This document shows positions 1,335 through 57,228 of a stretch of 64,000 bases of DNA, piece by piece. The stretch covers positions 496,001-560,000 of the forward strand of contig OZ287752.1 of assembly GCA_965649765.1 (NCBI GenBank), written 5' to 3'. A model generated the notes under the pieces. That model made no database searches and was not told where the DNA came from. It saw only the letters and a list, made by a program, of their open reading frames with translations. Position numbers and translations under genes: made by a program. The stretch comes from Bispira polyomma. Taxonomy: Eukaryota. Position 1 is the first letter of the stretch; each line of letters opens with the position of its first letter.

Positions 1335-2598
1335 AATTTAGGCTTTCAAACTTTATGGGCTCTGGCATACCTGTTGGATTACAATTAAACATTCAGCAAT
1401 GGAAACTATTGTTACATGATTACTGGGACAAACAGTTGCTTCAATAGTTTGGCTTTCCTCCAGGTTTCCATAGAGAATGTAAATTAAGTAGTGATACAGA
1501 AAAGCACAAATCAGCTGTGGAATACCCACAGGATGTGGATGCATATATAAATAAGGAAAGAGACATGGAGCCATAATAGGTCCATTTGCAAAAAAAGAAC
1601 AAATTGACACCACTCACCTTTCATGACTACGTTAAAAACGCATTCGAATAATAGGCAAGTGATTATAGACCTTAGTTGGCCCAAAGGTTAATCCGTCAAT
1701 GCAGGGGTAGATAAAGACAGTTATCTTGGGGTGGATTTTAAGCTCAGCTTCCCTAGTATAGATGACTTAAGCCGAGAACTAACAAAACTAGGAAAGGGGG
1801 CATACATATATAAATTGGACGTCAGTCGGGTCTTCCGACTTTTGAAAATCTCTTGATTATGATGTGTTAGGCCTAAATTAGAATGGCAGTTATATAGATA
1901 CTTGCTTACCCTTTGGGAATTGTCATGGCGCACAATTTTTCAACATGTTAGTGATGCAGTGCGTCATGCGTCAACGTGGTTCCAGCGTTATAAATTATTG
2001 TGAAGATTTCTTTGATATGGCACACACCCAACATTGTCAAGCAATCTTTTCAATATTTGCATTAAACCATAGAGAAATTAGGTATAACTATCAGTAACAA
2101 AATGACAGTCATTTCCAGTACACAGGCCATGTGCCTGGAGGTACTTATTATATTGATACTGTTGACTTTACAGTCTCATTACCGTAAGAGAAGCTAAGTC
2201 AAATCAAACAAATGGTCACAGAATGGTAATTAAAAACACACTGCACAAAGAGGGAGTTGCAGTCACAAGTGTGTCAAACCGGCGCATTGTTTCCTCAACA
2301 GGATGCTGGAATCTTCCGGAGGTGTAGCAAATCCGAATATAATTGTACTAACTGATGATTTCAAAAGAGATTTAAAATGGTTTGACAAATTTCTCCCATT
2401 GTATAATGGGGTTCCATGTTTGGACATAAAGTCATAGATTATACTCTCAAATTAGATGCTTGCCTCACTGGGTTATGGGGTAAATGAAGAAGTCTGTTCT
2501 ATTTCTTACCAATACAAATGAACTTTCAAAATTTAGGCATCGTTCCCTTAGAAAAGGTAAACATTGTGGTTGCATTTAAATTGTATCATAACTTTTTG
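1335..2598 (+). mobile_element. Old degenerate DIRS/Ngaro retrotransposon, RT-RNaseH left part
   Basis: Broken frames give QLNIQQWKLLLHDYWDKQLL, RQVIIDLSWPKG, YIYKLDVSRVFR, YIDTCLPFG, LDACLTGL and IVPLEKVNIVVAFKL, collinear with the pol at 6055-7670. Confidence 0.85.
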
Positions 2599-2806
2599 CT
2601 AGGTAAACCCAACAGGGTTAGTAAGTTCAGTGCTGACCATAAATTACATTGTTAAAACTATTCTGGTTATGCTGACCTTTACTAGTGATTGGTCAGCAGT
2701 TGGCCTACTTTCTCTCACATTTGCCACCAATTTCTACCCAACCTCACTTAAATTTAAGAACTTGAAAGGGCAGAACGCCATCTTAAAATCTTTCAAATAT
2801 TTTTAC
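2599..2806 (+). repeat. Split direct repeat A1 (208 bp)
   Basis: CTAGGTAAACC...TTTCAAATATTTTTAC is repeated at 9051-9258 with few substitutions. Confidence 0.93.
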
Positions 2807-3117
2807 ATTTGTTTTTATATTTTACATAACTCTTTATTTGTGTGTCTTTTTATGCATCTTTACATAACCGAGTCTTAATATATGTTGTAGTAAGAGGATG
2901 AGAGCTTACTGGACTGGAAATTAAAGATTGCTGGCACCTGACTGGAGTTATTGTCAAATTGCTTTGACATATGCAAATTTTGCTCTTTCTTTAGGGCTAT
3001 AGTTGAGGGATGTGCTTACTTTGATTCGAAATTTAATACAATTTATTTACAAATTCAAAACAATCTCAACTTAAGATACGCATATACCAAAGCATTTGTG
3101 TATATTTTACTTGCAGA

Positions 3118-4179
3118 ATGGCACCTCGGGTGAATTATGATTGTAGGGTGTGCAAAAGTAGTCACAAAAAGCCCATTAATGACGATTGTCCATTCATAAA
3201 AAAATCTGACACTAATGAACAGAATGACACTACCAGTGCGGCTATTAACTTACGTATTTTAGAAGAATTAAAAGGTCTAAGTGGCCGCATGTCGGCAATG
3301 GAAAAACGTGTTGATCAATCTGAGTGTAGAAACAATCTTGCTAGTGCTCCAGCACTTACTGTGGCCGCTGCTCCTGCAGAATTCTCGACCCCAGCCACAT
3401 TTATGCAGCCGACAGTCCAAGGTACAACTCCGGCGGCGACGGCTCAACCAGTACTCCTGCCAGTTCCAGAGACAGACGATACGCTGGTCCCCACGCTGAC
3501 TACCCTAAGGACGTCAGACTACTTGCAGCAGGCGGTAGATGCTAGACTGCGCGACCTGGCTGGACTCTCTGACAAAGGTAACTGCAAATCTCAACGAGGT
3601 GGGGCTGAAACTGTATGGGTAAAAGGACAGGTGGAATGGCCACAAAATCATATTCTCGGTGGCACAACTAAATCTCGAACAACTTATGACAGCCTTTCGA
3701 TGGCCCAATGGGTCTCGGGTTTTTGCTCTATCGTTAGAGATGAGAATAATGTAGAAACAAAAAATGCAATGTTAGATTATGTTTAAGATCTAATGAAAGA
3801 TTGTCACGACTTTTCGTGGGCAGCTGCAAAAGGCAGCCACGCGGTGTTACTCTGTCGTATGGAGGAAGGTAAAGTTTCGTGGGACGAAACGGCTAAAATT
3901 GATCGTATTAGACGTTCTCATGCACAAAAAGTGGTCAACACTTCAGGTCACTCGAATTATCAGAGTACTAGGCAAAAAGCTAATGAAAAGGGAATTCCCT
4001 GTAAATACTTTCAAAAAGGATCCCGTCCCCAGAAGACTGAACATGAAACCAAAGGTCAGACGTATTTGTACATCTGTGCTACTTGCCTGACTTTTGGGAA
4101 AAGCTTCTCACACCCATCTAGAGACTGTCATAGGAACAAAACTAGTAAATTTGGTGAAAGTAGTGCAAAAACCGAGTAG
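3118..4179 (+). pseudogene. Ngaro gag-like ORF1 with one in-frame stop (3784-3786)
   Basis: ORFs 3118-3786 and 3793-4179 share a frame. N-terminal CxxC..H..C and C-terminal Cys/His clusters (CKYFQKG..H, ICATC..HPSRDC). First ORF of the element. Confidence 0.85.
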
Positions 4180-4196
4180 GGCACTGCAGTACAGCA

Positions 4197-7100
4197 GTGC
4201 CCAAAATTGATAAAAAATATTCTGCTCATATCTCCAGTACACATGTAAATGATCACAAGCAGTATTGTGCTGGTAGAACTGTATATAATGTAAATGTTGC
4301 CAGATGGTGTAGCGACAATTGGAGGGCTGACTGGGCCAGATTTAGCAAGAAATCATATGCTCAGGTAGTAAAAGGAAATAAAAACAATATTCAAAACGGG
4401 GGATTAAGCTTAGGTCAAGGTCAGCCCTCCAAAGGTCGCTCAAATGTACAGAAAAAGTTGTTTCAAAATGTAAAAAGAAAAAATGTAAACAATTGCAAGC
4501 AGTGGACAAAGGTTCCACAAAAGGAGAACCCAAAGCCAATTGTAAAACGTCAAATACCCCATTCAAAAGTAGAGAATAAGGGTCAAACTGACACCTCCAG
4601 TAAAAACAAGGGTGATGTCGACAAGGTAATCTCTACCAAATCAGTGAGGTGTGAGGTCGTGAACAACAATGATATTAAGTGTCAGAATAGATTTACACAC
4701 TTGCCAGCATGTACTGAAACTGAAGCAATTAGTCACATCAGATTCTCAAGTTCAACAGACGATATCCCAAACAATCAGACTGGGGACAAGTATGAACAAG
4801 AGTTACAAGTTAAAAGAAAACATAGGGATGTGGTAGCCAAAGCGGAAAACAACCCTTTGTTTCAAAAATGGAACAAGCAAAATAAAGAGAAATTTGGCTT
4901 CATTCCACTAGGAAATTTAAAACTCCCAAATGAGGTTAAGGCAAGTTTGTTATAATTTGAGTTATATGTTTTGGTTACTAGTTAAGCATTCTATATGTGG
5001 ACATTCTGATGTAGTTCATTTATTTCATGTGTGTTTAAAATGTCATATGTGGTGTACAGACTTGAGGGGTATCAGCTGATGTGTATTAGGTACAATATTA
5101 TTGGAGAACTGTCAGTTATAAAAGTTTAGGGTCCAGTCGCATATATGCAGATACACTATACATTATTGGTAATATGTTGTTGAGGAGTAGTTATGACTTT
5201 TAAACATGTTATTTAGCAGTTGTATTTAATTGTGAGTGTTACTATCACATGTAATTTAGAATTTAGTAGTGTATATTAGACATTGTGGTTTATCACTCAG
5301 GAGTGATTCTACACAGTGTACATTGAGCTTAAGCTATGCTCTGTTCAGAAACTTTGATTCAATATAGTCTAGGTATTCTGTTGAGCGGTTTTGACACAGG
5401 CATACTGTCTAAGGTGTAGAATGGCAAACAGTTTAGTTTAAAAATCAGTGGAGTTTTAGCAGCCAGTGTGGTAGTGTTACCGGGGAAGGAAATGTAACTT
5501 ATACTACAGGAGTGTTTCACTGGTGCTGGCAGTACGCCCTTTATGACTGAACAATTGAGGCTGGTGGTATCATTCATCTTGTTAGTTACACAGAACAACA
5601 GTGTATGGTGATACAGGCAAGATTCAGCATGTTATATCGACTCCGCACAATTCTTCACTGGGACTGTGAGTTATGACTGCATAACAACTTTAGTCAAACT
5701 TGAACTGACAACAACAACGTTACTGTAATACAGCTAACAGCTTGGAAGACATTTCATCAGGAGGACAATAGTCAGGAACTTTGTGAACTATGGTATTGTA
5801 ACATTATTAAAGGTGTATCCTTGGTGAGAGTAATTTATTAATAATCTGGTTTTGAACCTATGATGTAAAGAGAGTTAAAATTTAAGATTGAACACATTTA
5901 ATGTGAGCCACATGTTATTTTGTCTTATCCTTGTAATTCTGAATAAATAGCAATAAGCTTAGTAAAGTTAGAACGCTCTTTTACTATCTTACTATCTACA
6001 AACCACTATACAATCAAAGTGTAACAAAGTTCACACTCAGGTGATCCTCTTGAGTTGCACAAGTTAGTGAGAAAACAAAAATGTCCAAATTTCTTAGGAG
6101 CTCAAATAACAGTGGCTTCTCAGCTGCATGTAGAAGAATGGGAAAAACTATTGGGTGACTATTGGGATACTCAACTGAACCATTTGCTTAAATTTGGATT
6201 TCCCTTAGATTTTAATAGAAATTGTCCCTTAGAAAACAAAGGTGACAACCATAGCTCAGCTATCTAGTTTCAAGAAGACGTTCAAGCTTATCTCAAGGAG
6301 GAAAAAGAGTTCGGAGCAATAATTGGGCCATTCAAAGAACCCCCTTTATCCGAACTACACGTTTCACCATTCATGACTCGGCCTAAACCGGATGCTAAGC
6401 ATAGAAGAGTTATTATTGACCTAAGTTGCCCACAGGGTCGTGCTGTAAATTCAGCCATAGATAGAGACCAATATCTTGACACTCCCTTTATACTTACATT
6501 ACCCACAGTGGATGATGTCACACGTAATGTAATCAAATTAGGCAGAGGTACACTATTGTACAAGCTAGATATCAGTCGCGCCTTTAGGCACGTAAAAATT
6601 GATCCAGCCGACTACGACCTGCTAGGCTTGAGATTAAATGAGTACTATATCGATACATGTCTGCCCTTTGGCTATCGCCACGGCAGCGCCATTTTTCAAC
6701 GCCTCAGCGACGCTATTCGGTTTATCTTGACGTCACAAGGTTATGATGTCATATTGATGACGTCATAGGATATGGAATTTCGGCAAACATTTTCGAAGCT
6801 TTTGAGAAATTGAAAGAAATTTTTCATAAATTAGGTTTTGCTCTCAGTAACAAAAAAGTGGTCGCTCCTAGTACCAAAGTAGTATGCGTAGGCATCCTCA
6901 TCAATACTGAAGATTTTACCGTATCTATCCCAGATAGTAAACTAAATAAGACAAAACATATATGTCACAGTTGGACAACTAAGAAAACATGCACCAAACG
7001 ACAGCTCCAGTCATTCCTGGGTTCATTGTTATACATCTCAAAATGTGTCAAAACGTCACAAGCTTACCTCAATAGAATATTGGACACCCTCAGAGGTGCT

Positions 7101-7670
7101 CAAAATGCTCAGAACATTAAGTTAGATATAAATTTTCACCAGGATCTCAACTGGTTTAATACCTTTCTTACAACATTCAATGGTATGGCCTTCTTTGACC
7201 ACAGACCAGTAACAGACCAGGTACATCTGGATGCATGTTTGCAGGGACTGGGTGCATGTTGTAACAATCAAATTTTTACTAAAGAAATTCCTCTTGGCTA
7301 TAGAGACTACACTATCGTCCACCTGGAGATGATAAATATTTTAGTATCTATTAGGCTTTGGAAAAGTAAATGGTCGGGGAAAAAATTACTTATACACTGT
7401 GATAACCAAGCAGTTGTGTCTATCTTGAACTCAGGAAAGACCTATGATCTTACTCTCACAGCAATGACTGGAAATATTTTCATGGAAGCTGCAAAGGCAG
7501 ATATAGAAATCAGAACGGTTCATATCCTGGGTAAAAGAAACAATATAGCTGATTTACTTTCTAGATGGGCCATTACCACTGACAGGGATAGGAAATTACA
7601 GGAAATACTTCAGAATCCAACATGGTTACAGGTCCATGATGACCTTTTAGAGATAGATTGGTCTATATAG
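4197..7670 (+). pseudogene. Ngaro pol (N-terminal extension + RT + RNase H), disrupted by a solo LTR, a stop at 6265 and a frameshift at the YxDD motif near 6750
   Basis: RVIIDLS, YKLDISRAFRHV, DTCLPFG and shifted IDD (att gat gac, ~6753). RNase H motifs HLDAC, HLEMIN, HCDNQAVV, NNIADLLSR. Removing 4948-6031 joins EVKAS to SHSGDPLELHK in frame. Confidence 0.92.
4948..6026 (+). mobile_element. Solo LTR (1079 bp) of an LTR retrotransposon
   Basis: Termini TGTTATA...TGTAACA. Exact 5-bp TSD AAGTT (4943-4947, 6027-6031). AATAAA at 5942. Excision restores the host frame. Confidence 0.9.
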
Positions 7671-7685
7671 TTCTAACAATTTCAG

Positions 7686-8640
7686 CATCTCCTACCTGGG
7701 TAGGATTGGCAGACAGAGCAGTCACTGGAGCGCATCAGGCCTTTCGTCCTTCCACACAAAAGTCCTACACAGCAATGTTTAGGGTATTTTTAGCATATTG
7801 CTGCTTTCCAAATATTTCTATATATAATATCGTTCCTTCAGTAATTGTAGCCTTTCTGTAGGTCCTAGTAGTTAACAATACCTCTCATACCTCTGTAGCA
7901 AACTATCTCTCAGCGATAAAAGCTAATATGTCACTATATGGGCTTCCAGTCACTGCTTTTGCGGATCAAAGAATTAAGTATTTTCAAAAAGCCCTTGTTT
8001 TACACAAACCTTTTAAGGCAAAAATAAATGGTTTCATTGACGTTGATTTGTTGCAGAAAATAGCACTGGTTTGTGATTCTATGTATATGGGGCAAGTGAA
8101 CAAAGCTGCCTATCTATTAGCATTCTTTTCTTTCTTGCGAATCTCGAATCTAGTTCCCCATTGCAGCAACTGGCTAGGGCTGATATCATTTTCGCCCAGC
8201 CAGGTGCTCACATCATAATTGAATGGACTAAAACCCTTCAGTCGAGAAACACCATTAAGGTGATAAAAATACCCACACTGAAAAATAAAATTATTTGTCC
8301 AGTGACCGCCCTCAAAGTCCTTCTTGCAATAACACCGGGTGATAAAAATTCTCCACTATTCCAAGTGAAAAACGACACTCGATGGCTAACATTAACAGAC
8401 AGCAAAATTCGCAGAAATCTCAAAGATATTTTAGTTAGACTAAACAAAGATCAAGCAAATATAACATTTCACACATTCCGTCGCTCTGGGGCGACCTTAG
8501 CATTTAATGCTCATGTTCCATTACAGGACATACAAAGTCAGGGCATCTGGTCCTCTGATTGTGGCGATATATCACTCAGGACCACTCGGCCTCTGATCAG
8601 GTTGCCCTTGCCCTACAATCTCTCCTCAACCCACTACCTA
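7686..8640 (+). pseudogene. Ngaro tyrosine recombinase (one stop, two frameshifts)
   Basis: AFRPSTQKSY, FFSFLRISNL (catalytic R), WTKT (K), FHTFRRSGAT (HxxR), GIWSSDC, then a shifted RYI carrying the catalytic Tyr. Confidence 0.92.
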
Positions 8641-8658
8641 CTCCCTAGTTGGGCCTTG

Positions 8659-9050
8659 GTGGTTATTGTCTCTTTCACTATAATTTAGTGCATATAAAAT
8701 ATAAATATTTTATCTATTATGGCCACCTTTTAGTCTAGGCCAATTGAAATATGTAATTTTGTTAAGGTTAGCTTAAATTCAAATATGTAAATTGCTTAAG
8801 GTTACCTTAAATTCTGGTAAACTTTAAGTCAAAATTCAAAAATTGTAACCTTAAATTTAGTCGCTTTGAAGTCACCCTTAAGGTGAACTTAGACTAACCT
8901 TAAAGTTCTAACTAAGGTGGCCTTATATCATATTCTAAATATACATTTTAACCCAGTTAACTATATGTGTAGTGATAGGTTAAAAAATATATATCCGAAC
9001 TGCTAGTCTCACTCAAGGTCATCCTCTCAACCTTAGGTCAGGGCACTGTG
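8659..9050 (+). repeat. Split direct repeat B1
   Basis: Matches 10000-10450 except for two segments missing here (59 bp total). Confidence 0.92.
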
Positions 9051-9258
9051 CTAGGTAAACCAAACGGGGTTAGTAAGTTCAGTGCTGACCATAAATTACA
9101 TTGTTAAAACTATTCTGGTTATGCTGACCTTTACTAGTGGTTGGCCAGCAGTTGGCCTACTTTCTCTCACATTTGCCGCCAATTTCTACCCAACCTCACT
9201 TTAATTTAAGAACTTGAAAGGGCAGAACGCCATCTTAAAAACTTTCAAATATTTTTAC
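9051..9258 (+). repeat. Split direct repeat A2
   Basis: Copy of 2599-2806, directly abutting B1. Confidence 0.93.
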
Positions 9259-9999
9259 CCCACCCTCATCCCCAACTACACCTGTAAGGGCTCTTTCTGC
9301 GTCACACCGGGAGCAAGCTTCAACAGGAAGGTTTCTGTCTGGTCCACTTTACACCTCATGCGCAGGGGCGGTGATGTACCGGGGTTGGGTCTTTGACCAG
9401 CAAGCAACATGGCTCTGCTGCAGGCTTTCATCCCTTGGTACAGTGTGGTCCTTTCAGGCTCCTTCCTGTTCGTCTCCGCACTTATAATGGAAATTCCATG
9501 CCTCCTAGGAAGTTTCTCATATTTTAGGAATCAGCCCTTCCAGCCGTGGTTCAAACTTTTCAGCAATTGTATGTCACTATTTTGTTGTCACATGTTGTAT
9601 TTAAATAAAATTGTTGACATATATATCAGAATTTAGACATGGTGTTAACAGTTGTTTGTGTTAGTTTCACTGCAAGTCGAGGAGCCTCACAATGTAAAAC
9701 AAAGTAAATGGTCAAGCAAGCCTATCAGCCAAGCAAGCCTCAAGCAACCAAGCAGCATTTACCTGATATTGTATTTGTGAACAATAAATCTTCTTACTAC
9801 ACATATACAAGGTGCAGGACCTATACTTGATGTTAACGGCTGTATTATTCATCAAAGTAAGGCATAGTGAGATCATGGGTGCTTTGGACTTTAAAAGACA
9901 TTCGTTTACATGCATCCTCTTTGTTATTTTATTAGTTTTTAGTTTTCAGCTAGATACTGTCTCTGTACCATTTTCTTTTAAATCTTTACTCTTGTTAAT

Positions 10000-10450
10000 G
10001 TGGTTATTGTCTCTTTCACTATAATTTAGTGCATATAAAATGTAAATATTTTATCTATTATGGCCACCTTTTAGTCAAAACTTTTACTAACCTTAACTAG
10101 ACGCATGTAAGGCCTAGGCCAATTGAAATATGTAATTTTGTTAAGGTTAGCTTAAATTCTGTTAAACTTAAAGTCTTAACAAATATGTAAATTGCTTAAG
10201 GTTACCTTAAATTCTGGTAAACTTTAAGCCAAAATTCAAAAATGGTAACCTTAAATTTAGTCGCTTTGAAGTCACCCTTAAGGTGAACTTAGACTAACCT
10301 TAAAGTTCTAACTAAGGTGGCCTTATACCATATTCTAAATATACATTTTTACCTAGTTAACTATATGTGTAGTGATAGATTAAAAAATATATATCCCAAC
10401 TGCTAGTCTCACTCAAGGTCATCCTCTCAACCTTAGGTCAGGGCAATGTG
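10000..10450 (+). repeat. Split direct repeat B2 (right terminus)
   Basis: Copy of 8659-9050 ending ...GGTCAGGGCAATGTG. Confidence 0.92.
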
Positions 10451-11250
10451 AAAGGACCCAAAATATAAGTCAAATGCGACAATCAGGCTGTAGTCAGCAT
10501 TCTTAAATCAGGAATGGCAAGAGACCCTTTTCTGGCTGCTTGTACCAGAAATATCTGGTACATGGCTGCTTTGGCAGATGTAGACTTGCAGTATATACAT
10601 GTGTTAGACAAATTAACAGGTTTGCAGATCTATTGCCCAGATGGACTAATTCTGTTAGCAATATCAATGAATTGAATTGTTTGGTTAAAACCCCAGTTTG
10701 GTCGAAAACATCCATAGAGTTATTACATATAGATAATACATAATAGAGAAATATGCTGATATTGAACCTAGATGCTTTGTGTTGTAGGGAAGCATGCGTT
10801 GAAGGGTCTGCAATCTCAAGCATAGAGGAGACTACACACAGCCTTCAGACCAAACACACAGCATTGCTATGAAATGTTGTTTAGAACTTTTGTGGCCTTT
10901 GCTATAAATGTAGCTATGGTTTTAGAAGCCTTGGATGTAAATAGTATCATTTCCTTTCTGGGATTATTGGTAATTAACAAAGTTTTAGTACACATGGTAG
11001 CGAATACGGGGAAATCTTTCAAAATCAATCAACCTCATGTGTTAGTGAAACGCAACATCATGGACATTTTAAAAGCTTATTGTTCAATGAGGAACTATCA
11101 GTAATGCACATGTGTTTAAAGAAATTTTTCTAATGGGATTCTTTGGCTTCTTTAGGTTGTCAAATTTAGCACTCCATGCCCCAAACAAATTTGACCCGGC
11201 CAGGCATTGAAACGGGTGCTGATGTGTTTCTTTTTCAAAAAACCTTGGTA
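10451..11250 (+). mobile_element. Old DIRS/Ngaro element, right part (RNase H end + YR N-terminal half)
   Basis: KGPKI*VKCDNQAVVSILKSG..RDPFLAACTRNIW..ADLLPRW, then AFRPNTQHCYEMLFRTFVAF and GFFRLSNL. Confidence 0.85.
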
Positions 11251-15500: not shown

Positions 15501-18500
15501 CAAAAGTAGAGATGGCTCTCAGTACAGTGCTTACCTTGACCAAGGCCACATAGCGTCAAAAGCTTACCTTTACCAAGCCAACATAGAGTCAAATGCTAAC
15601 CTTTACCAAGCCAACATAGAGTCAAATGCTTACCTTTACCAAGCCAGCATAGAGTCAAATGCTTACCTTTACCAAGCCAGCATAGAGTCAAATGCTTACC
15701 TTTACTAATCCTAGTGACAAACAAACACAACTACCTGGGCAGAAGAAATTAAAAAAGATGGATCTGATATCAAACAGGGATTTAGTATAGACAAAAATGC
15801 ATCTGCTAAAACATACACTATTAAAAACAAAAACACAAAGAAATTTCTTCCTTTAACGAGGTCTTTTTGAATGTGAATGTATGAAGGGTACTAAAGAATC
15901 AATCTATGTTTTGTAATCCGTTAATATAATGTGCAAAGGTAAAAGAGAAATAAACGTCTGTATTTTAATACAAAACCCGTTTTTGAGTAAATTACTTAAC
16001 AATAACACACTAATGTAAATATTACTATTATTTGCTGTTAGTAAGTTTCATAAGACTAAATGACAACTGACCTGCATCTTTGTGGACAGTCACATGACAA
16101 CTGACCAGAAGTGAACTCTTCCTCAACACCTTTGAGGCAGGAAACTGAACACATACAGAAAACAGCTGCAGAAATTGTGTCATTTGTAAAAAGTGTTCAG
16201 GATTTGCTATAGTTTGATTACATTAAGTTGACTTACTAGTGTACACGGATGATCAGTTGTTTTGTACACATATGCTTACATTCCTTGCAAATCTTTGTGA
16301 CACATTTCTTATAAGACCCTTACCGGACCATTTACAACAGCTTTGTATTGATGACAAATGTTCTTTTTATGGGATTCAAAGCTCTATTTCACGTAACTTG
16401 ACTGCTCAAGTTGAACCAAGTAACTCTCATTCCTTAAACTAAAGACACAGATTAGTTAGTAACATGCCCAAGATACTTTCGCAAAGCATATTCATATAAG
16501 ACCACTATTTGATATAATCATCTCTGGACATTTTTACCAACACTTTTAGAATTCCTTTATTTTACACAATCAGATTGTACCATACTCTATCGGCAACCAT
16601 CGAAAACTCGAAATACCGTCCATTGCAGTCCAGAGCCACAATCATAAAATATGATTGGCACTATATATATCAGATTGCAACATTTAGTCATATGACTAAA
16701 ACCGGCAGGACTTAATGATGTCATGGCAAAATTGCATGATATCATTGCATACATTGTGAGGGGGGGGAGGGGGGGGGAGGGGGGGGGGGCGGTTGAAGTG
16801 TTAGGTGGCTTAAAATGTATGGCTTATTATTCTGACAATATGTTATTAAGCTTCACCCGGTACACCAAAGACTAACATGGATTGCAGGCTCAATACAACC
16901 TTTGGTGAGTTTCTTACTCTTAGGCCACGACATATAAACAAGTAAAATCAGTCAAGGCCTGGCTTTGTTTATCGAACCAGCAGGTGCTCACCCTGATCTA
17001 TATCTGTAGATGCACAGGCGGTGAAGTCCCCATCCAGAGCATCTCCAGAAAGGGGATAAAGAGGATCCCCACACCCACACCGGGACACAAGATACTTCTG
17101 GTAGCAAGTCTTTACACAACCCTGCTCACATAAAACATTGTACTACAATTGTTGTTTTCAACATGTGACTCATAAAAAAAGATAATCTATTCTATACAAT
17201 GGATTGTTTTGACAACCCTAGTGAACGATACATAAAATATTGTTTGTACTAAGTAATTCTCACAACCCTTAACAGTTTACTACTGTACTCCACTGGGTAA
17301 TAGTAACATCATCACTTACTGTACTCCACTGGATAATAGTGACATCATCACTTACTGTACTCCACTGGATAATAGTGACATCATCACTTACTGTACTCCA
17401 CTGGATAATAGTGACATCATCACCTACTGTATTCCACTGGATAATAGTGACATCATCACTTACCATACTACTGTACTCAACTGGGTATTAGTGACATCAT
17501 CACTTACTATACTCCACTGGGTAATAGTGACATCATCAATTACTGTACTCCACTGGATAATAGTGACATCATCACTTACTGTACTCCACTGGGTAATAGT
17601 GACATCATCACTTACTGTACTCCACTGGATAATAGACATCATCACTTACTGTACTCCACTAGATAAAAGTGACATCATCACTTACTGTACTCCACTGGAT
17701 AATAGTGACATCATCACTTACTGTACTCCACTGGGTAATAGTGACATCATCACTTACTGTACTCCACTGGGTAATAGTGACATCATCACTTACTGTACTC
17801 CACTGGATAATAGTGACATCATCACTTACTGTACTTCACTGGGTAATAGTAACATCATCACTTACTGTACTCCACTGGATAATAGTGACATCATCACTTA
17901 CTGTACTCCACTGGGTATTAGTGACATCAGCACTTACTGTACTCCACTGGATAATAGTGACATCATCACTTACTGTACTCCACTGGATAATAGTGACATC
18001 ATCACTTACTGTACTCCACTGGGTAATAGTGACATCATCACTTACTGTACTCCACTGGATAATAGTGACATCGTCACTTATTGTACTCCACTGGGTATTA
18101 GTGACATCATCACTTACTGTACTCCACTGGGTAATAGTGACATCATCACTTACTGTACTCCACTGGATAATAGTGACATCATCACTTACTGTACTCCACT
18201 GGGTATTAGTGACATCAGCACCTACTGTACTCCACTGGGTAATAGTAACATCGTCACTAACTCTACCCACTGGGTATTAGTGACATCATCACCTACTGTA
18301 CTCCACTGGATAATAGTGACATTATCACTTACTGTACTCCACTGGATAATAGTGACATCATCACCTACTGTATTCCACTGGATACTAGTGACATCATCAC
18401 TTACCATACTACTGTACTCAACTGGGTTTTAGTGACGTCATCACTTACCATACTACTGTACTCGACTGGGTAGGTCTCGGCAAACACATCCTTCCCTTCG

Positions 18501-21500
18501 CCTGTGTAATCAGTTGTACAGTTGCCATAAGGATGTGATTTCCTCTCCATATCCACCTGTATTTGTAGGGAAAGGAAGAAGTGCCATTACAACGGAATTT
18601 TAATGGATTCCTTAGTTTCTTTGTACTCTAATTCCTTTATTGCAAGTAGCTGAGTGTTTGTACACTCATAGTGAAGTTTTACATTGCAAATTCCAGAATA
18701 GGTACATAATATGCATATTTTACAGTGACATTAAAACATAGAAGTGGTAAAGGTACAATGCCTACTGTCAATGTTTTAGTATACACTTGGCCACCTACAG
18801 GACACACAGACAATATGTACCAGAGCATCCATGTGTATGTTGAGTTGACAACACGATTCAGTTAAAACAAATTACTAAAAATACCATTTTCCTTGATATG
18901 TCAGTATATCGCCTGGCTTTAGACCTGTTGGTGCAGAAAACTTTAGAAAAATATTGTCTAAAGATAGATGTGAGTAATTCGTCATAATCTACAGCTCAAA
19001 GACATGGTTGAATATCGAGTTCAAGAAGTTGGGGTGGAATTTGGATGTTTTATTTTTTGTCAGTGTGAAGGTAGCAAAGGCAAAGAAAACAGCTCTTTTT
19101 GCCACAAGGCGCAGCTTGTCGAACTTACATTAAAAGCTTAGAAAATATTCGGGTTATACCGAGATTTGAATTGGAAAATAAGGGCTTCAAAAAGAGATTT
19201 ACAAAGTTTACTCGGTATACTTATATATTTGCACAAATGTGTCTATCCGGCATGCCTGTTTGTAAACTACATGCTTCAAACTTTGCGTGGTATTAAAAGC
19301 TCTAAACAAATTTACACTGACAAAACTCTTCTGTGGGGACCTTGCTATGCCCATGGACATGGACCCATTCCTAGCATCAATAAAGTGTGTATAATAATAA
19401 TAATTAAGTCGGTGACCACAAACTCACTTTACAGGCCAACAAATAAATGGGTATTTCCTATTGAAGAGGTATAGAATATATATTTGGTGGTTAAATGGCA
19501 TAATGCTAAGCAAGCGGCAAACAAATTGTACAATTTCCACAGTTGAAACACCCAGCTTCGTGTCCGGCATCTTATAAACACTTTCCGAATTGAAGGGGAT
19601 TCACCCTTCTTTGTAATACTAAGTAGATATGGCTTGGTAGCTTTCGTTGCATCGAAAATCAGGAAGACTTTATCAACAGATTTGACTAGATTGCAAATTG
19701 ATTATAAAATATATGGATTCCATGCTTTCAGGCACTCAGAATCTATAATTTCAGGCCCATGGTGGATAGAAGAACCAGGTTATATGGCACTACCAAAAGC
19801 CCACCCCAGAACCAGCAGCTTCCATTGTTAACGTTTTCAAAAAACATATCCGTATAACTTAATTGGTTTTGGGAACTCTTTGTAAATAACTTACAAAACT
19901 AATCTGATAGTGTAACAATCTTAGTTGAATGTTTGAATGTATATTAATAATATACCTCAATGTGGTATTCATTGTGTTATTAATGTTGTTAAATTAGAAT
20001 AAGGTCAATAAATGACTTTTAAGGTTAAGTGTAGATGGAATGGTCAGACCCTGTGAAGGTCGTATGGCTAAAACCAGAACATAGATCTTTACCTCGCAAT
20101 TTTGACTTGTAGATTGCAGAGAATACAGACCGGGGGATAGCTTTTTTATCCTCCTGTGGTGACGTAATTTTTAGTGTGTTATAAGTTTGTATTTGAAGCT
20201 AATGTTTTAAGGTGACAAGTCAGTACCTCTTGTTATATTCTATAGTTTATTCTGGTATATTAGAACTACATACATGCAATAATTATATTTTATAATTGGA
20301 TAATAAAAATAAAACAATGCTCGTTCTCGGATGGTATTGATTTAGAGATAAAATTTTAAAATATGCGTCACTTGGAAAATTTTCCTATTATATTCCATTG
20401 TTTAAAAGATAAGTTTCTGCCCATCAAGTAAAGATATACTTCTGATAAAACTTTCACTTCTAAGTTGGTCAAGTAAAGACTAAACTGTGACAACGCCTGT
20501 TCCCCACCAACCTACAGGCCTACCTGTCTGACACCTATAGAGAGGAGTTGTCCCGGCTGTGCCAGTATACCTAAATCCCGGGGATAGGGCATCATGTTTT
20601 GGGTGTGGAGGACTATACGGGCACCAGCCGGACCTACCAGGAGATCTGTGTACTCTGATTGGTCGACATTGATCATCAGGGACAAGCCTGAAAGGTACAA
20701 AAGTCTTGCAGTCAATTTCAATATTGCTGCTTTTAGGATGCTTTAAATTCTGTTTTGGTGTTAATGTCTTTACAGGTAGGTATTATTTAATGACGGGCAG
20801 TATATTGGTATAGGAAAGAGTAGGTGGTAAAGATTTCTGAGATACAGATGTTTTAGAAGACAAAGAAACGTTAGTTAAAACCATTTTTATCATATAGGTT
20901 TCCACCTAACAAAGTGACTTTTGGGTGTTTACCAAAGCTTTATAAATGACCATAGACAAAAGATGTGAAAACACCAGGGTGAAACGTTTCATTGGTTGTG
21001 TAGTTGATATGGTTGGCCAAGTCCGACCAGGGAGCTGTCAAATTTTGATACCATCTATGAGTCCTTTAATTTTAAGCACTTTATGAAACAATTTAAATTA
21101 ACCAATTTTCGTTCTCCCTGTAAATATAATTTAAATGTGTTCTCTTAATTGTTCTAGTTTTTTTACCATAATCAAATAGCCTACCATATCTCTGTCCAGT
21201 TCTATGCGCTGTAACCGTCTGACGAGTGTTTCCCCAACCTGAGTTGTAAGTGAAACAGTTGCCCAGCAACGGGTCATAGAAATGCTGGAAATCCCTGCAA
21301 ATACCAGATATAACTTTGTGTTGCATAACTAATTACATAGTTCTAAGCAATTTGCATTCTTTCACATTGATTAAAAAACTACACATTTTTTCAGACAGAT
21401 ACTCAGTAGTCTGCAAAACCCTGCCGACAACAAAGGAAAATTGCCTAGATTTACTTTTTTCAAACTGTGTCATGGATTATGCCTTTGCTCATGTCCCATT

Positions 21501-41939: not shown

Positions 41940-44900
41940 TATTTTAAATTTTTTTATTTAAGCCATTTTTCACAAACAAAAAAACGTTACACAATTACTC
42001 AACAGAGACGACCACACTAAACATTGCAAAAAAAAACACAAGGAAAAGACATCCCCATTCGCCTACATGATTTTTAAGACACTGATGTTGAAAATATTTT
42101 ATACCATTTATAAATTGTTGTATATTTTGCCATATAACTTTCATTTTTACTTTCTTTAATTGAACATTGATATCAGCTATACCTTTAAGATACATTTGAC
42201 AGTCCTTCCAATAGGGTTCTTTAGTATTTATTTTACAATCATAGATGAACTTCTTGATGTACAGAATCAAACAATTAAATTATTTTCCATAGCTAATATA
42301 ATTTAGATTTTTCAGTCCAAAACCTGCATTAGATCCATTTTAGTCAATACTATATTTAGTTTCATCACATGATTGTAAACATGAACAAAATTTAACCAAA
42401 CATTTTTTACAAAACAACAGTATAACAAATGTCCAATATCTTGCACCTCTTCTGCAGATTGCACAAATTATAAGTGCTGAAGTTTGATTTTTTTTATTTT
42501 AAATAGTTTTTCTGTTGCAATATATTTGTATAGTATTTTATACTGAAATTCATTAATATTATTCCCTACTCTAATCACCAAAGGTAATGTGCATATATTG
42601 GGCCAGTCATTTTCTTTCAATTCATATTTACCTGCATAAAAAAGTTTGGCATTACAATTTATCCTACACCTGTTTACATACTCCTAGTTTACCTTTTTTT
42701 ATGTTAATGAATATATTAATGTATATCTACCATCGCAACATAAAATAGAAGTTGCAAAGTTACCTGTATGTGTAAGATTTTTAAAATCTATAGTATTTAT
42801 TTATGCTTTTGGAATGCTATCGATTATACCTCGCCAGAGGATATAATTTCCTTTAGTAACACCACAATTTAGTCAAAAATTGTCAGGTTTTAATTTACCT
42901 GATTTGTTTAAAAGGTCTGTAAGTGCCCATAAAGCAGCTGCTAATTGTTTGTTCACTTTGTGATATTTACCACCCCACAAAAATTCAAAAATAATTTCAT
43001 TTATTTTCTTGACAATGACATCTGGTATATGCAATACTGTGGCTGGGAAGCTAAATTTAGATACTCCAAATGACTTGGATTTGGTAATATCAAGAAAAAA
43101 TGAACACCTGGATATAACTAGACCTATAGCTGACACTTTGATATCAGACCATTTTTCCATTCTATCATGTGTTGATTTTCCAAAAACAGATCATGTGTAT
43201 AAGACTATATCATACAGGAATATTAGAACCATCAACATAACTGAGTTTAGGAAAGATATCAAATCATCAGAGCTGATCACACAACAGGAAACAGAACTTG
43301 AAAATTTGGTTCATCAGTACAATAAATGTTTAGCTGAGTTGCTTAAGAAACATGCTCCAATACTAATGAAAAATTTGTCCACCAATTTAAAAGTCCTGTG
43401 GTTTGACAGTAACATAAAAAATCAGAAAAGGATGCAGAAGAGCTGAAAGGAAGTGGTTAAATACTAGACAACAGTCAGACCTGGATAAGTACAAATCCTG
43501 CAGGAACAGTGTGCATAGAACTATTGATAAAACTAAATCAAGCTACTACACAAATATAATAAATGCTGACACCAGTAAAAATAGATTGTTCAAAATTGTA
43601 GATTCTATAAATAGCAGGCAAAAAGAAACTCCCATGCCATCGGATGTAAAATCGGATGATCTACCAAGTGGATTCAGCAACTACTTTAAAACAAAAATCG
43701 ACAACATCAGGAAGGCTTTTGAAGAAAATACAACATTTAGTGAGTTGGATGGAGAGACAGACTCAAAGTTGTGTCAGTTTGAAACACAATCTGAGGAGAC
43801 AATCAGTAAACTGATAAAAATCAACTCAAACAAGAAATGCATCTTAAATCCTATCCACATTATTAAAAGAATGTGTGTTAGAACTTTCCCCAGTAATAAC
43901 CAAAATTATCAACATGTCCATCAAGTCTTCAACAGTGCCAGTGGAATTTAAGCAAGCTGTGGCTACCTCTCTTGTCAAAAAAATGAAGGCAAAATTAGAG
44001 TACAAAAACTATAGACCAGTGTCAAACCTTCCATATGTCACAAAAGTACTAGAGAAGGTTACAGCGTGTCAACTGAAGGAATACAAGCAGAAAAATAGTC
44101 TGAATGAACCATTACAATCTGCCTATAAGCACTCTCACTCCACCCAGACAGCTCTGTTGAAAGTCTTCAATGACATTCTCAAAAATGGATAATGAAGAAC
44201 ACTTTTAGACTTGTCACACAGTCGATCATAAAATACTTGTAAGTCGTCTGAGAAGCTGTTTTGGAATCACAGAAGAAGCGATCAAGTGGATACAATCATA
44301 TTTAAATGATAGAACTCAGAAAGTCATTGTAAATGGTATGGAGAGTTCTCCACAGCTGCTGGAGTACTGTGTGCCTCAAGGCTCAGTGTTGGGGCCTTTG
44401 TTTTATTCAGACTATGCTGGACCACTGGGTGAACTTTTGCGCTCTTTGGACTTCAACTTTCATCTTTATGCAGATGGCTCCCAACTGATTACATCAATAC
44501 CTGGTAGTACCCTGACTGATCCACCAACAGTTGTGAATGCAGTCCAAAATGGAGTAAAACAAGTTGGAGAATGGATGAAACGAAACAAACTAAAATTAAA
44601 TAAAGATAAAACTGAATCTATAGTATTTGGCACCACACATCGACTAAAAAGCTCATAATAAACTCTTTTCAGTGATACTATCTTGAGATCAACTTCAGCA
44701 AGGAATCTAGGAGTGACTGGACCATTACTTAAATATGAGTTCCCATGTTGCATCCATATGTCAAGCTTGCCTCTATCGAAAATTCAACAGTTTCTTACCA
44801 AAGAGGCTACCAAAACCTTGGTCCATGCCACAATCATTTCATAGTTGGATTACTGTGACTCACTGCTTTACGGCATTAATCAGTACCTAATTGCTAAACT

Positions 44901-47100: not shown

Positions 47101-47164
47101 TATTATAGACATACTTGCTTGTATATATCCTTTCAGGCGCTAATATGAAAGAACTTGGTGAAGG

Positions 47165-49481
47165 GCCAAGAATCCATTAAACAGAAGCCGACTTTGTCGC
47201 CAGATTGCTCGGTGCAATGTACTTATTAACAAGGATAAGTCGTATTATAGCAAACTTATCTCTGACAATAGTCACAACTCCAGGAAGCTATGGCACGAAC
47301 TGCGCAAGACCCTTAATATGGATACCAATGTGGCACTCCCGTCCCATGATTCTGATAATTCACTAGCTGATAAGCTTGCTTCCTTTTTTTCGGACAAAAT
47401 TAAGAGAATTAGAGATACTTTTGTTGTTTCTGGAACTAAAATTGATGTTCATCCTCTTTCTGATCCCCCAGAAATTACTGCCTTTACCAGAGTCTCTGAA
47501 GACGATGTTAGTATAATAATAAGTAACTCGCCTATAAAATCCTGCATGTTGGATCCATGGCCAACATCTCTTATTAAAGAATGCAGTGATATATTACTAC
47601 CATCCATTACAAAGCTTGTAAACTGCTCACTTACTGAGGGACATGTACCTGATGGTTTTAAAACAGCTGTGGTTACTCCTCTTATTAAGAAGGCTTCTCT
47701 TCCAGTTGATGACCTAAAGAATTATCACCTGTATCTGGTCTTAGTTTCGTATCAAAACTGGTTGAACGTGTGGTTGCTAGGCAACTGTTAGATCACATCT
47801 TTTTTCACGACTTAGAAAACCCATACAAGTCTGCATATAAAACAGGTCATTCGATAGAGACAGTACTTCTGTCTATAAAAAATGAAGTTCACATATCTTT
47901 GTCAAGAGGGGAACCTACTGCCCTGGTATTGCTCGACCTCTCTGCTGCCTTTGACACCATTGATCATTCAACGCTTCCCTTGGTTTGGAGTTACGGGCTC
48001 TGTTCTTAAATGGTTCACTTCCTACTTAACTGATCGTTATCAGTCGATAAAAATTGGCTCTACTTTGTCCGATCTTTGTAAACTCTTGTTTGGTGTTCCT
48101 CAAGGTTCTGTTTTGGGCCCTCTGTTCTTCTCATTATACACTGCCCTCTCTCAGATTGGTTATTGGCAAATACACAGGAATTAAGTTTCATTTTTATGCA
48201 GATGATACCCAAATTTATGTGCACCTATCCCACAAGGACACATCTACTGCCTTTGAACAGTTGAACAGGTGCCTTGATGATGTGAAAGAGTGGATGTCAA
48301 CTGACAAACTCAAACTTAATCCTGACAAGACTGAGTTCATAATCTTTGGCTCAAAACAACAGAGGGATAAGTTGAAAGCATTGTTTCCGGTTGACAACCT
48401 GGGTAGCCCTTTCAGTCCAGCTGATTCTGTCAAGAACCTGGGTGTATGGTTTGACTCTGACTTTTCTTTCTCTAAACATGTTCAGAGTGTCTGCAAAAGC
48501 TGTTTTGTGCAACTCTGGGACTTTAGACGTATCAGACGGTTTCTCACCTATGATGCTTCTATACTTGTGGTGAATGCTTTTGTCAGTAGTAGACTGGATT
48601 ACTGCAATTCGCTTTTCAGGAGTCACTCAAAGTTTAATTTACACAAATTACAATGCATTCAAAATAGTCCAGCTAGAATTGTGTCAAACACCAGTCGATA
48701 CACCAGTATAACTCCTGTTCTTAAGAAATTGCATTGGCTCCCTGTTGAACAGAGTTCAGTGTTTAAGACAGCTACACTTGTTTATAAGTTTCTTCACACT
48801 GGGTTTCCAAAGTATTTTGCCCCATATCTTTCCACTTACAACAGTTCCTACAATACCAGATGTAGTCAGAGTGGTAGTAACTTCCTTGTTGTTCCGAAGT
48901 TCCACCCATCTACTCAAAAGTCGGTTAAACAGTTTGGTCCCAGCTTTGCTTTTGATGCTCCCATTGTTTGGAGGGGCCACGGTGGCCTAGTGGTTAGCAA
49001 GCATTGCGCTTCACAATCACTGGTCTCTCTGGGAGTTCGAATCCCATCGATGCCTATTTGGGAAAGGTGGTAGTTTCTTACTGTGGGCCGCTGGTTTCAG
49101 TGCAGAACCTTGACCAACTGTATGCAGTATTTCCTCCAGCGTTTCCAACTACCCATCCCAATATAACCTACTAAAAGGTACTAGAGTAGACGTTAAATAT
49201 CCAAATTCAAAAACCCATTGTTTGGAATGCTCTTCCTGATGTGATTCGTGCTTCCCCCTCACTAGCCTGTTTTAGAAAGCAGCTTAAAACCCACTTGTAC
49301 ACTGAAGCATATCCACCTTAGTGTCAATCATCACCGGCGCGCTCTATGTTGCTTACTCTTTTTCTGTCCCTTGATTTTGGAAATTGGATAACTGTCTTTT
49401 GTGCTGGTGCGCCTTAGAGTCCCCTTTGTTAAGGGGAGATTAAGCGCAATAAAAGTCTACTTACAATTACCATTACAATTA
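47165..49481 (+). mobile_element. 5'-truncated CR1/L2-group LINE (same family as 92-712), frameshifted RT
   Basis: KSCMLDPWPT, LLDLSAAFDTIDH, GVPQGSVLGP, FYADDTQ, SSRLDYCNS. (CAATTA)-like tail. Confidence 0.93.
48973..49213 (+). mobile_element. tRNA-derived SINE inserted in the LINE
   Basis: A and B boxes. 13-bp TSD CCCATTGTTTGGA. The empty site is visible in the copy at 450-462. Confidence 0.95.
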
Positions 49482-54959: not shown

Positions 54960-57228
54960 TTAAAGAAGGTACTAAATAAAGAAAGTATTAAATAAAGAAG
55001 GTACTAATCAAAGAAAGTACTAAATAATAAAGAAGGTATTAAATAAAGAAGGTACTAAATAATAAAGAAGGTATTAAATAAAGAACGTACTAAATAAAGA
55101 AAGTACTAAATAAAGAAGGTACTAATCAAAGAAAGTACTGAATAATAAAGAAGGTATTAAATAAAGAAGGTACTGAATAAAGAAGGTATTAAATAAAAAA
55201 GGTACTAAATAAAGAAGGTATTAAATAAATAAGGTACTAAATGAAGAACGCATTGCATTGTATTGTACATTTTTAACGCACCTTATTAATGCTAGGCATC
55301 TTCTGAGGCGCAACATCAGAAAAATTAGCCAATAGAAAAATGAAAAAACATAGCCAGGTCGTAAGGATGGATGTGTCAGCACCCAGGAAGAGGACTATGG
55401 CGGATAGGCGAGTCTGAAGAGGTAGGTTTGAAGTTTTTTCCTAAAACCAGAAAGTGTATCGAGCAGTCCAAGTTCAACTGGAAGACTGTTCCATAACATA
55501 AAGAGGGTGACCGAGAAGGCTCTAGATCCAACCCTCTTGGGGGGTTTCTTAGAGGAATCAGAGAGTCTTTTTCCCTTTTAAAGCTGCTAAAGGAGAGCTT
55601 AGTAGCGAGGTAGTGAGGCTGTTGAGAGACGACAGCTTTAAAAATGGTTATGTGCATTTTGAACAGGATTCGATAGTGAATAGGAAGCCAGTGAAGTTTC
55701 TTGAGGTATGAAGTGACATCAGTACGAATTTCCAAACGAAAGATGACTCTACATAGATAGTTTTGAATGGACTTGTTAATGTGGGACTTATTGGCTCCAT
55801 ACAGAAGACAATTACAGTAGTCAAGGCGGCTATTTACAAGAGCATTGGCCACAGTGATAGCAGTATCTAGTCACAGATAATTTCTGATTCTTTTGAGGTT
55901 CCGAATGTGATAGTAACAAAAGCGGCGGATGCTGTTAATGTGAGGAAGAAATGAAAAAGCAGGTTCGATAGTGACACCTATGTTTTTGACCTGGTCTGAA
56001 GGTTGAATCTCATTGCCCTGTAGTGTGATTGGGAAAAGTGATCTTAAGTATTCACTGTGTTTCTTATTTCCAATTAGGATGAATTCAGTTTTGTCAGGGT
56101 TTAGTTTCAGTTGGAGTAGTTCATCCACGCCTGAACTAAGGGGAGAGGTATAAAATAAAGAAGGTATTAAATAAAAAAGTTATTAAATAAAGAAGGTATT
56201 AAATGATGAAAGTACTAATTAAATAAAGTACTAAATAAAAAATGTACTATATAATAAAGAAGGTATTAAATAAAGAATGTACTAAATAAAGAAAGTATGA
56301 AAGAAAGAAGGTATTAAATAAAAAAGGTACTAAATAAAGAAGGTATTAAATAAAGAAAGTATTAAATAAAGAATGTATTAAATAAAGAATGTACTAAATA
56401 ATGAATGTACTAAATAATAAAGAGGATATTAAATAAAGAAGGTATTAAATAAAGAAGGTATTAAATGAAGAAGGTATTAAATAAAGAAGGTATTAAATAA
56501 AAAATGTACTAAATAAAGAAGGTACTAAATAAGGAAGGTATTAAATAAAGAAGGTACTTAATAAAGAAGGTACTAAATAAAAAGGTATTAAATAAAAAAA
56601 GGTACTAAATAAAGAAGGTACTAAATGAAGAAGGTATTAAATAAGGAAGGTACTAAATAAAGAAGGAATTAAATAAAGAAAGTATTAAATAAAGAATGTA
56701 TTAAATAAAGAATGTACTAAATATAGAATGTACTAAATAATAAAGAGGGTATTAAATAAAGAAGGTATTAAATAAAGAAGGTATTAAATAAAAAGGTACT
56801 AAATAAAGAAGGTACTTAATAAAGAAGGTATTAAATAAAGAAGGTATTAAATAAAAGAGGTACTAAATAAAGAAGGTACTAAATAAAGAAGGTATTAAAT
56901 AAAGAAGGTATTAAATAAAGAAGGTACTAAATCAAGTAGGTACTTAATAAAGAAGGTACTAAATAAAAAAGTATTAAATAAAGAAGGTACTAAATAAAGT
57001 AGGTATTAAATAAAGAAGGTATTAAATAAGGAAGGTACTAAATAAAGAAGGTATTAAATAAAAAAGGTACTAAATAAAGAAGGTACTTAATACAGAAGGT
57101 ACGTAATACAGAAGGTACTTAATACAGAATGTGGTAAATTTAATACAGAATGTATTAACTGAAGAAGGTATTTAATACAGAATGTATTAAATAAAGAAGG
57201 TACTAAATGAAGAAGGTACTAAATAAAT
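54960..57228. repeat. 16-bp minisatellite array interrupted by a LINE
   Basis: Unit TAAATAAAGAAGGTA(C/T) at 54960-55250 and 56150-57228. Confidence 0.95.
55265..56145 (-). mobile_element. LINE 3' portion (second CR1/L2-group family)
   Basis: LKLNPDKTEFILIG, ANALVNSRLDYCN, LKKLHWLPI. Confidence 0.9.

Follow-up and report, generated by a model that had tools for sequence, protein, structure and literature searches.

Conserved splice sites predict a Gag-YR fusion in Ngaro-like retrotransposons of Bispira polyomma

Ngaro-like retrotransposons of Bispira polyomma and their relatives probably express their recombinase (YR) through splicing that drops the C-terminal half of Gag together with pol, giving a predicted Gag(N)-YR fusion. 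Comparative evidence strongly supports the central proposal of a preliminary description of this DNA, namely that the N-terminal half of Gag is spliced to YR and pol is skipped. The alignment of copies that it had named beforehand as a check recovered the acceptor in 36 of 36 clusters and the donor in 23 of 23 clusters with gag. The window, i.e., the whole analysed stretch of 64,000 nt, contains a decayed Ngaro-like element (the young element, 2597-10448) lying within an older Ngaro-like element (Table 1).

Table 1. Features of the two nested elements in the window.
Feature	Positions	Strand	Basis or remark
Older element's pol, upstream half, cut by the young element	1340..2596	+	tblastn
A1 repeat (5' split direct repeat)	2597..2806	+	97% match to 9049-9258; intact relatives share the layout
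Acceptor-like AG about 120 nt upstream of the gag ATG, for which a search gave no partner donor	2993..2994	+	Best-scoring leader AG in 6/10 leaders scored
Acceptor-like AG one base ahead of the gag ATG (3118)	3115..3116	+	Distance to ATG variable among families, not phase-locked
gag ORF, cut short by a stop at 3784-3786 in the window copy	3118..4179	+	Sequence reading, Gag model
Predicted phase-1 donor, exon end 3577, GT 3578-3579	3575..3583	+	15/15 aligned copies; 23/23 clusters; 95/110 copies
pol (RT, RNase H; no methyltransferase match), broken here, inside the predicted intron	4164..7670	+	Pfam on L072
Predicted -1 frameshift signal between gag and pol, made up of an A-rich heptamer (altered at one base here), the gag stop and a hairpin	4167..4202	+	Kept in both clades
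Private 1.08-kb insertion	4948..6026		Missing from siblings; contigs from three runs contain the joint 4942-6027
Predicted phase-1 acceptor before YR, AG at 7684-7685, 15 nt past the pol stop	7672..7685	+	Comparative
YR frame; no start codon ahead of the SAM-like domain; stop and frameshifts in the window copy	7686..8648	+	Pfam on intact relative
B1-A2 repeats, junction folds as a hairpin	8659..9258	+	Repeat comparison, folding
B2 repeat, closing the young element at its 3' end	10000..10448	+	Repeat comparison
Older element's pol C-terminal end	10450..10743	+	tblastn, comparison with relatives
Older element: in-frame ATG (10772) within a pyrimidine stretch, predicted phase-1 acceptor AG 10786-10787	10772..10787	+	Comparative
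Older element's YR N-terminus, decayed	10788..11005	+	Sequence comparison

Nested architecture and class assignment

In tblastn with the older pol, the match stops at about residue 744 and picks up at residue 743 at position 10454, on the other side of the young element. Both window copies are defective, carrying stops, frameshifts and a 1.08-kb insertion in pol, and since gag of the older copy is absent from the window, the donor of the older element was examined in its relatives only. In the intact relative L072, Pfam identified RVT_1, RT_RNaseH, Phage_int_SAM and Phage_integrase, giving the order gag, RT/RNase H and YR, all on one strand. The split direct repeats A1 ... B1-A2 ... B2 are present both in the window and in L072, where their identities are 100% and 99.7%. 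The pol of L072 terminates about 35 aa past the last RNase H-like match, with no methyltransferase domain found after RNase H at E 0.1, and no hydrolase ORF was found downstream of YR (longest open frame 71 aa).

The repeat layout A1-ORFs-B1-A2-B2 is described for Ngaro-like elements of the DIRS order (PMC9210276, PMC8547959, PMC3783388, PMC6681497). Repeat layout, gene order and the lack of a methyltransferase match suggest that the window elements are Ngaro-like; the tree covered the elements collected in this analysis. Membership of the PAT-like group was rejected because, despite the split direct repeats, no methyltransferase domain was found, such a domain being reported for DIRS and PAT in PMC7192593. 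DIRS1-like membership, which implies terminal repeats in inverted orientation plus an internal complementary region, was rejected because the repeats here are direct. According to PMC7192593 and PMC5633606, Dictyostelium DIRS-1 is likewise a YR retrotransposon with three ORFs that inserts into itself, as the young element has done, but it differs in having inverted repeats, a methyltransferase and overlapping ORF2 and ORF3. The preliminary description had cited splicing of DIRS-1 as established; however, native splicing was not found in the passages retrieved from these two papers, where every mention of splicing refers to a marker intron introduced artificially.

Conserved donor and acceptor sites

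Recomputed coordinates agree with those first described for the donor GT at 3578 and for the AGs at 7684-7685 and 10786-10787, each of the latter lying 53 nt upstream of the AFRP motif in phase 1 to the YR frame. The claim that both acceptors lie exactly 18 codons before AFRP is correct for the window copies, but it does not represent a conserved match. The spacing in the subfamily of the young element is 56 nt (19 codons), and the window copy alone among 8 carries a 3-nt deletion, so its identity with the older copy is accidental, whereas 53 nt is a trait of the older element's clade (9/9 clusters).

A phase-1 YAG lies 44-71 nt upstream of the YR motif in every one of the 36 families (clusters at 85% nucleotide identity, 9 of them from metagenome contigs), among which YR identity ranges from 18 to 96%. 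Counted by element, it is present in 47/51 in-genome and 9/9 metagenome copies. Among the 36 family representatives, 42 YAG sites located 40-60 nt upstream of the motif are in phase 1, compared with 2 and 3 in the other phases, a bias that is not due to chance. T is found at -6 in 35/36 clusters and at -5 in 31/36, and C or T at -3 in all 36. In the YR proteins of other assemblies, the residue pair expected from a phase-1 YAG-G occurs in 30 of the 35 that reach position -19, with other offsets giving 0-35%. In the 9 distant elements, the acceptor shows a clear pyrimidine tract and takes rank 1-7 when all AGs at the locus are compared; many in-genome acceptors are weak, ranking 5-110 of about 160-300 AGs by a generic scoring table.

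The donor GT follows 460 nt of gag (153 codons plus one base, i.e., phase 1). An AG/GTA donor is located on one gag glycine in all 23 in-genome families with gag, and a scripted count recovered it in 42/44 in-genome elements with gag, one of the misses being an anchoring failure. The codon preceding the donor varies (K, A, T, Q, S), yet its third base is always A. Gags from other assemblies (120 examined, 113 anchored) have donor-compatible flanking residues in 72/72 of those with this glycine. The distant elements L184 and L187 have no donor at the homologous place and a candidate farther downstream. Conserved in matching phase, the donor and acceptor consensus sequences are those of a GT-AG spliceosomal intron.

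The Gag model and sequence assign a Cys/His motif, a coiled coil, a linker and a helix to the N-terminal half, and a helical domain and zinc fingers to the C-terminal half; the Pfam CCCH match is weak (E 0.047). In the model, the predicted donor would fall just past the helix at 161-177 and ahead of the next Gag domain. As to a retroviral or LTR-type capsid fold in ORF1, fold searches with the whole Gag model were uninformative, since the coiled coil dominated the matches, the best of which had Z 5.1 and rmsd 2.3 with 47 aligned. In the old clade, the donor is one codon farther from this helix and the acceptor one codon closer to the YR motif, so that the joined spacing between helix and motif is 25 codons in both clades, a compensation that represents one evolutionary event.

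Ahead of gag, the acceptor-like AG noted in the preliminary description is present one base before the ATG, but the distance varies and no conserved partner donor was found when leaders were compared across families. GT sites near the 5' end of the element were rejected as leader donors, as the old clade does not retain them and their position is within the terminal hairpin.

Expression model and alternative routes to YR

In the proposed model, the phase-1 donor in the middle of gag would be joined to the phase-1 acceptor just past the pol stop, and the spliced RNA would encode YR preceded in frame by the N-terminal 135-180 residues of Gag. RNA left unspliced would act as the genome and as the template for Gag, and also for Gag-Pol by a predicted -1 frameshift; the gag/pol hairpin has z values of -5.3 in the window and -4.4 in an intact relative. 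We infer that splicing occurs, that it pairs these two sites, and that the fused protein is the functional recombinase. More speculatively, the coiled coil and helix of Gag could pack YR into particles or direct it to targets. ORF1 of Ngaro has been linked to integration-site choice (PMC8547959), a link for which a Gag half that aims the recombinase would account.

The route in print is a programmed -1 ribosomal frameshift at the end of pol (Poulter and Butler 2015, as quoted in PMC13003380). YR does lie in the -1 frame in the window's subfamily and in about half of the clusters, occasionally with a short overlap, and a signal of this kind seems to operate at gag/pol in the same elements. However, the remaining clusters, fully open elements included, have YR in frame 0 or +1 (L072, L128 and L180 have frames 0, -1 and +1, respectively), and no slippery heptamer is conserved within 160 nt of the YR motif, with none in the window's subfamily, whereas the gag/pol signal is kept in both clades. 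With three frames among open elements and no conserved slippery site, the sequences indicate that this frameshift cannot be general, and it is very unlikely to be how YR is reached. A variable YR frame relative to RT-RH, in frame or shifted, is likewise described for fungal Ngaro elements (PMC3783388). Read-through of the pol stop codon is highly improbable: in about 10 clusters, as well as in the young family of high copy number, YR is in frame past the stop, and pol follows a gag TGA in frame in three distant elements, so the group may use read-through, but this route is inapplicable to the -1 and +1 families, the frame-0 families L119 and L121 have a second stop ahead of YR, and the pol stop varies among TAG, TAA and TGA in no common context.

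Alternatively, a genuine acceptor might be paired with a 5' leader exon or serve in trans-splicing, with YR starting from its own ATG (the upstream ATG of the old clade or an internal Met) and the gag donor used otherwise, which we consider unlikely. The preliminary description had stated that the YR frame lacks an ATG, which applies to the young element but not to the older one, where an in-frame ATG lies five codons upstream of the AG. Such an ATG is present upstream of the acceptor in 8/9 old-clade clusters (7 scored, the eighth read separately), most of which also have a second phase-1 AG 21 nt upstream of the acceptor; thus YR could start unaided in the old clade. The leader, too, has acceptor-like sites, without a conserved donor. 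However, this ATG is ATA in some copies and missing from the similar motif of L182, no ATG is conserved in other clades, the internal Met falls within the SAM-like domain, where some families have V, L or F in its place, and the phase lock observed at the two sites would be superfluous for a leader splice. That the sites are by-products of protein conservation, unused in splicing, is extremely improbable. The donor overlaps a conserved glycine in a coding region and in-genome acceptors are weak, but the synonymous base fixed at the donor has no counterpart in 36 other conserved Gly columns (0/36), and the acceptor, despite its position in a non-coding spacer whose length is free (from 6 to more than 40 nt past the pol stop), retains TT(T/G)YAG and its phase down to 18% protein identity.

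Spliced products were sought in several data sets. No donor-to-acceptor joint was found among the joints listed for three runs against the window element and L072; judging from size and even cover, these runs look like genomic DNA. Three pattern searches for a genomic copy with the exact intron removed gave 0 matches, and among 110 loci read downstream, taken from the best 150 pre-donor matches, none continued into the YR start, both being weak negatives. Fused Gag and YR were absent from 240 proteins, from 148 further Gag-N matches (0/148, a weak negative) and from a region search, and no report of a spliced Gag-YR RNA was found in the literature searched.

Comparable systems and implications

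Retroviral env and foamy-virus pol are expressed from spliced subgenomic RNAs, and in plant Ty1/Copia elements, alternative splicing of the genomic RNA gives a short Gag-only RNA. As in the retroviral cases, the predicted intron here spans most of pol, and sites of less than optimal strength would keep spliced and unspliced RNA in balance. However, the product would be an integration enzyme whose fusion partner is a large structured piece of Gag instead of a short leader, and pol is apparently reached through a frameshift. The proposal shares with Ty1/Copia the setting of protein output by alternative splicing of retrotransposon genomic RNA, but the splice here would bypass RT to access the final ORF.

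Splicing onto Gag, which the evidence favours, would be a different route from the ribosomal frameshift that has been proposed for Ngaro-like elements. With less confidence, we regard it as fairly probable that, across an animal Ngaro lineage broad enough to include YR identities down to 18-30%, a spliced Gag(N)-YR fusion is the only form in which the recombinase is made, with one RNA giving Gag, frameshifted Gag-Pol and spliced Gag-YR and the Gag half packing and aiming YR, in place of the frameshift model. Exact donor and acceptor positions are given here for a young family in which many open copies are nearly identical; in L072 the predicted junction would link 2407 to 5518, equivalent to 3577 and 7686 in the window. 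If the model is true, the working recombinase would be about 150 residues longer than annotated, which is relevant to biochemistry on YR; particle assembly and target choice would be tied to the enzyme, and a retrovirus-like three-way expression plan would exist in a separate order of retroelements.

Structure and genomic setting of the nested elements

The window, which lies in the 1.04-Gb Bispira polyomma genome (75 contigs), carries a tyrosine-recombinase (YR) retrotransposon that has decayed. Its genes and split direct repeats run in the order A1, gag, pol, YR, B1, A2 and B2, and it is Ngaro-like as judged by structure. A related young family (e.g., L072) shares ~78% nucleotide identity with this element and has many near-identical copies, in which three frames, 375, 840 and 333 codons long, are open. 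In L072, Pfam searches recognised RT and RNase H together with integrase SAM-like and integrase domains, and returned no methyltransferase domain. The young element interrupts pol of an older, distant element: the match to that element ends at pol residue ~744 and restarts at 743 past the insertion. Pieces of YR elements also adjoin other loci (L072, L169, L172, L174 and L186), which suggests self-targeting or clustering. A 1.08-kb insertion in pol, found in the window copy alone, is probably another repeat because its coverage in contigs is deeper than that of its flanks. In addition, an inverted repeat at the B-A junction folds as a hairpin (z -4.3); both of its arms are altered together in the old clade (L164 and L165), and the junction may serve as a single-stranded recombination substrate for YR. 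Conserved CCAAT-like and YY1-like motifs in repeat A suggest that transcription is driven from within the element and begins close to the A1 end, through an internal promoter.

Features of the window (window coordinates)
Feature	Position	Remark
Older element, pieces	1340-2596; 10450-11005	Ngaro-like
A1 repeat, young element	2597-2806	
Conserved motifs, repeat A	2686-2790	
Acceptor-like sites	2993-2994; 3115-3116	in 520-nt leader
gag donor GT	3578-3579	phase 1
gag/pol signal	4167-4202	frameshift-like (-1), in both clades
pol insertion	4948-6026	
YR acceptor AG, young	7684-7685	phase 1
B1 repeat, young element	8659-9048	
B-A junction	9035-9095	
A2 repeat, young element	9049-9258	
B2 repeat, young element	10000-10448	
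YR acceptor AG, old	10786-10787	phase 1
Tandem arrays	17161-18430; 15521-15744	36-nt and 33-nt units
Related pol, short piece	19142-19474	43% identity
Non-LTR reverse transcriptase-like fragments	84-557; 42964-44658; 47162-49073; 55376-55870	judged by eye

Conserved predicted splice sites in gag and before YR

The gag donor, the two YR acceptors and an AG before the gag ATG all occur at the positions and in the phases given in the preliminary description, and the sites proved conserved across family copies. One and the same gag glycine carries AG|GTA in 42/44 gag-bearing elements and in all 23 of their clusters (85% nucleotide identity); the GT is present in 15/15 aligned copies and, where ranking located the donor, places 1-8 among 100-320 GT sites. 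At the copy level, the donor is kept in 95/110, and the remaining copies show point changes or local deletions. The codon before the donor is variable, with its final base always A. The third base of the donor glycine column is T in 14 rows and G in two, which we infer to be misaligned old-clade rows; in 36 further columns of conserved glycine, the third base is never fixed. Where Gag proteins of other assemblies have the donor glycine, its flanking residues are donor-compatible in 72/72 cases. Among distant metagenome elements, one has a donor at the homologous place, and two more distant ones lack it and have a candidate further downstream instead. In the structure predicted for Gag (mean pLDDT 75, pTM 0.47), the donor position separates helix 161-177 from the following domain, and the part that would be retained contains a Cys/His motif together with a long helix (38-75) resembling coiled coils.

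The acceptor was assessed in elements that have a YR N-terminus, 51 of them in-genome and 9 from metagenomes, representing 27 and 9 clusters. The metagenome set derives from 12 loci, out of 26, that were inspected for this terminus; all 12 had a phase-1 YAG, and three near-duplicates were then removed. In-genome, 47/51 elements carry a phase-1 YAG 50, 53 or 56 nt before the YR motif, and fellow cluster members of the exceptions (L069, L080, L172 and L173) retain it. Across 36 representatives, which leave out seven copies with decay or local deletions (including the window copy), YAGs 40-60 nt upstream, counted regardless of phase, number 42 in phase 1 versus 2 and 3 in the two remaining ones. 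With the AG chosen from the phase-1 distances, T occupies -6 in 35/36 and -5 in 31/36, and C/T occupies -3 in 36/36, at inter-cluster YR identities as low as 18%. Among YR proteins from other assemblies (120 examined, 75 anchored), 30 of the 35 reaching position -19 have the residue pair expected from such an acceptor.

The AG-to-AFRP spacing, described as exactly equal in the young and old elements, is 56 nt in the young subfamily and 53 nt in the window copy alone (1/8), through a 3-nt deletion. In the old clade, the distance from the Gag helix to the donor is one codon longer and that from the acceptor to the YR motif one codon shorter, so the joined spacing stays 25 codons in both clades. 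Most old-clade clusters (L161-L177) have a second phase-1 AG 21 nt 5' of the main acceptor, 74 nt before the YR motif and just before an in-frame ATG. When rated with a generic scoring table, many of the in-genome acceptors are weak, which counts against splicing. By analogy with retroviruses, weak sites would arguably be anticipated where part of an element's RNA has to stay unspliced.

Alternative routes to YR expression

Poulter and Butler (2015), as quoted in a passage of PMC13003380, proposed a -1 frameshift where pol and YR overlap. However, the pol stop and the AG are separated by anything between 6 nt and more than 40 nt, YR occurs in all three frames (one each in the fully open L072, L128 and L180), and a conserved slippery heptamer was not found at pol/YR, whereas gag/pol in the same elements has a conserved A-rich heptamer, gag stop and hairpin (z -4.4 to -5.3). 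In three distant metagenome elements, unlike in both clades, gag ends with a TGA and pol follows in the same frame. Read-through of the pol stop is compatible with frame-0 families alone. The best alternative is that old-clade YR starts from its own upstream ATG: the preliminary description saw no ATG upstream in the YR frame, which fails for the old element, where one lies five codons before the AG. This ATG is nevertheless missing in some copies and absent outside the clade, and the surrounding bases vary in a splice-motif-like rather than codon-like manner; the old clade could use both routes.

A genomic copy with the predicted intron removed was not found in genome pattern searches or in 110 loci read downstream of the donor. 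In a decayed element (L174:7991-9107), gag is directly joined to YR at gag residue ~280; the join lies away from the splice sites, and it was rejected as a spliced copy and assigned to ordinary deletion. No conserved donor was found for the leader acceptor-like sites, which might pair with a non-canonical donor or be trans-spliced.

Proposed expression model

Judged from sequence, the sites are real and conserved, and the predicted Gag-YR splice is well supported. Unspliced RNA would serve as the genome and be translated to Gag, and to Gag-Pol through the predicted -1 frameshift, while a spliced RNA ~3.1 kb shorter would encode the putative Gag(N)-YR fusion protein. The excerpts of the literature consulted contain no report of such a splice, and DIRS-1, cited earlier as an established precedent, does not provide one in the splicing passages of two papers, which treat solely an artificial marker intron. 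As a speculation, the Gag half may act in packaging or targeting, which would fit the report, in the portion of PMC8547959 concerned, that ORF1 loss in Cafeteria accompanies altered Ngaro integration sites.
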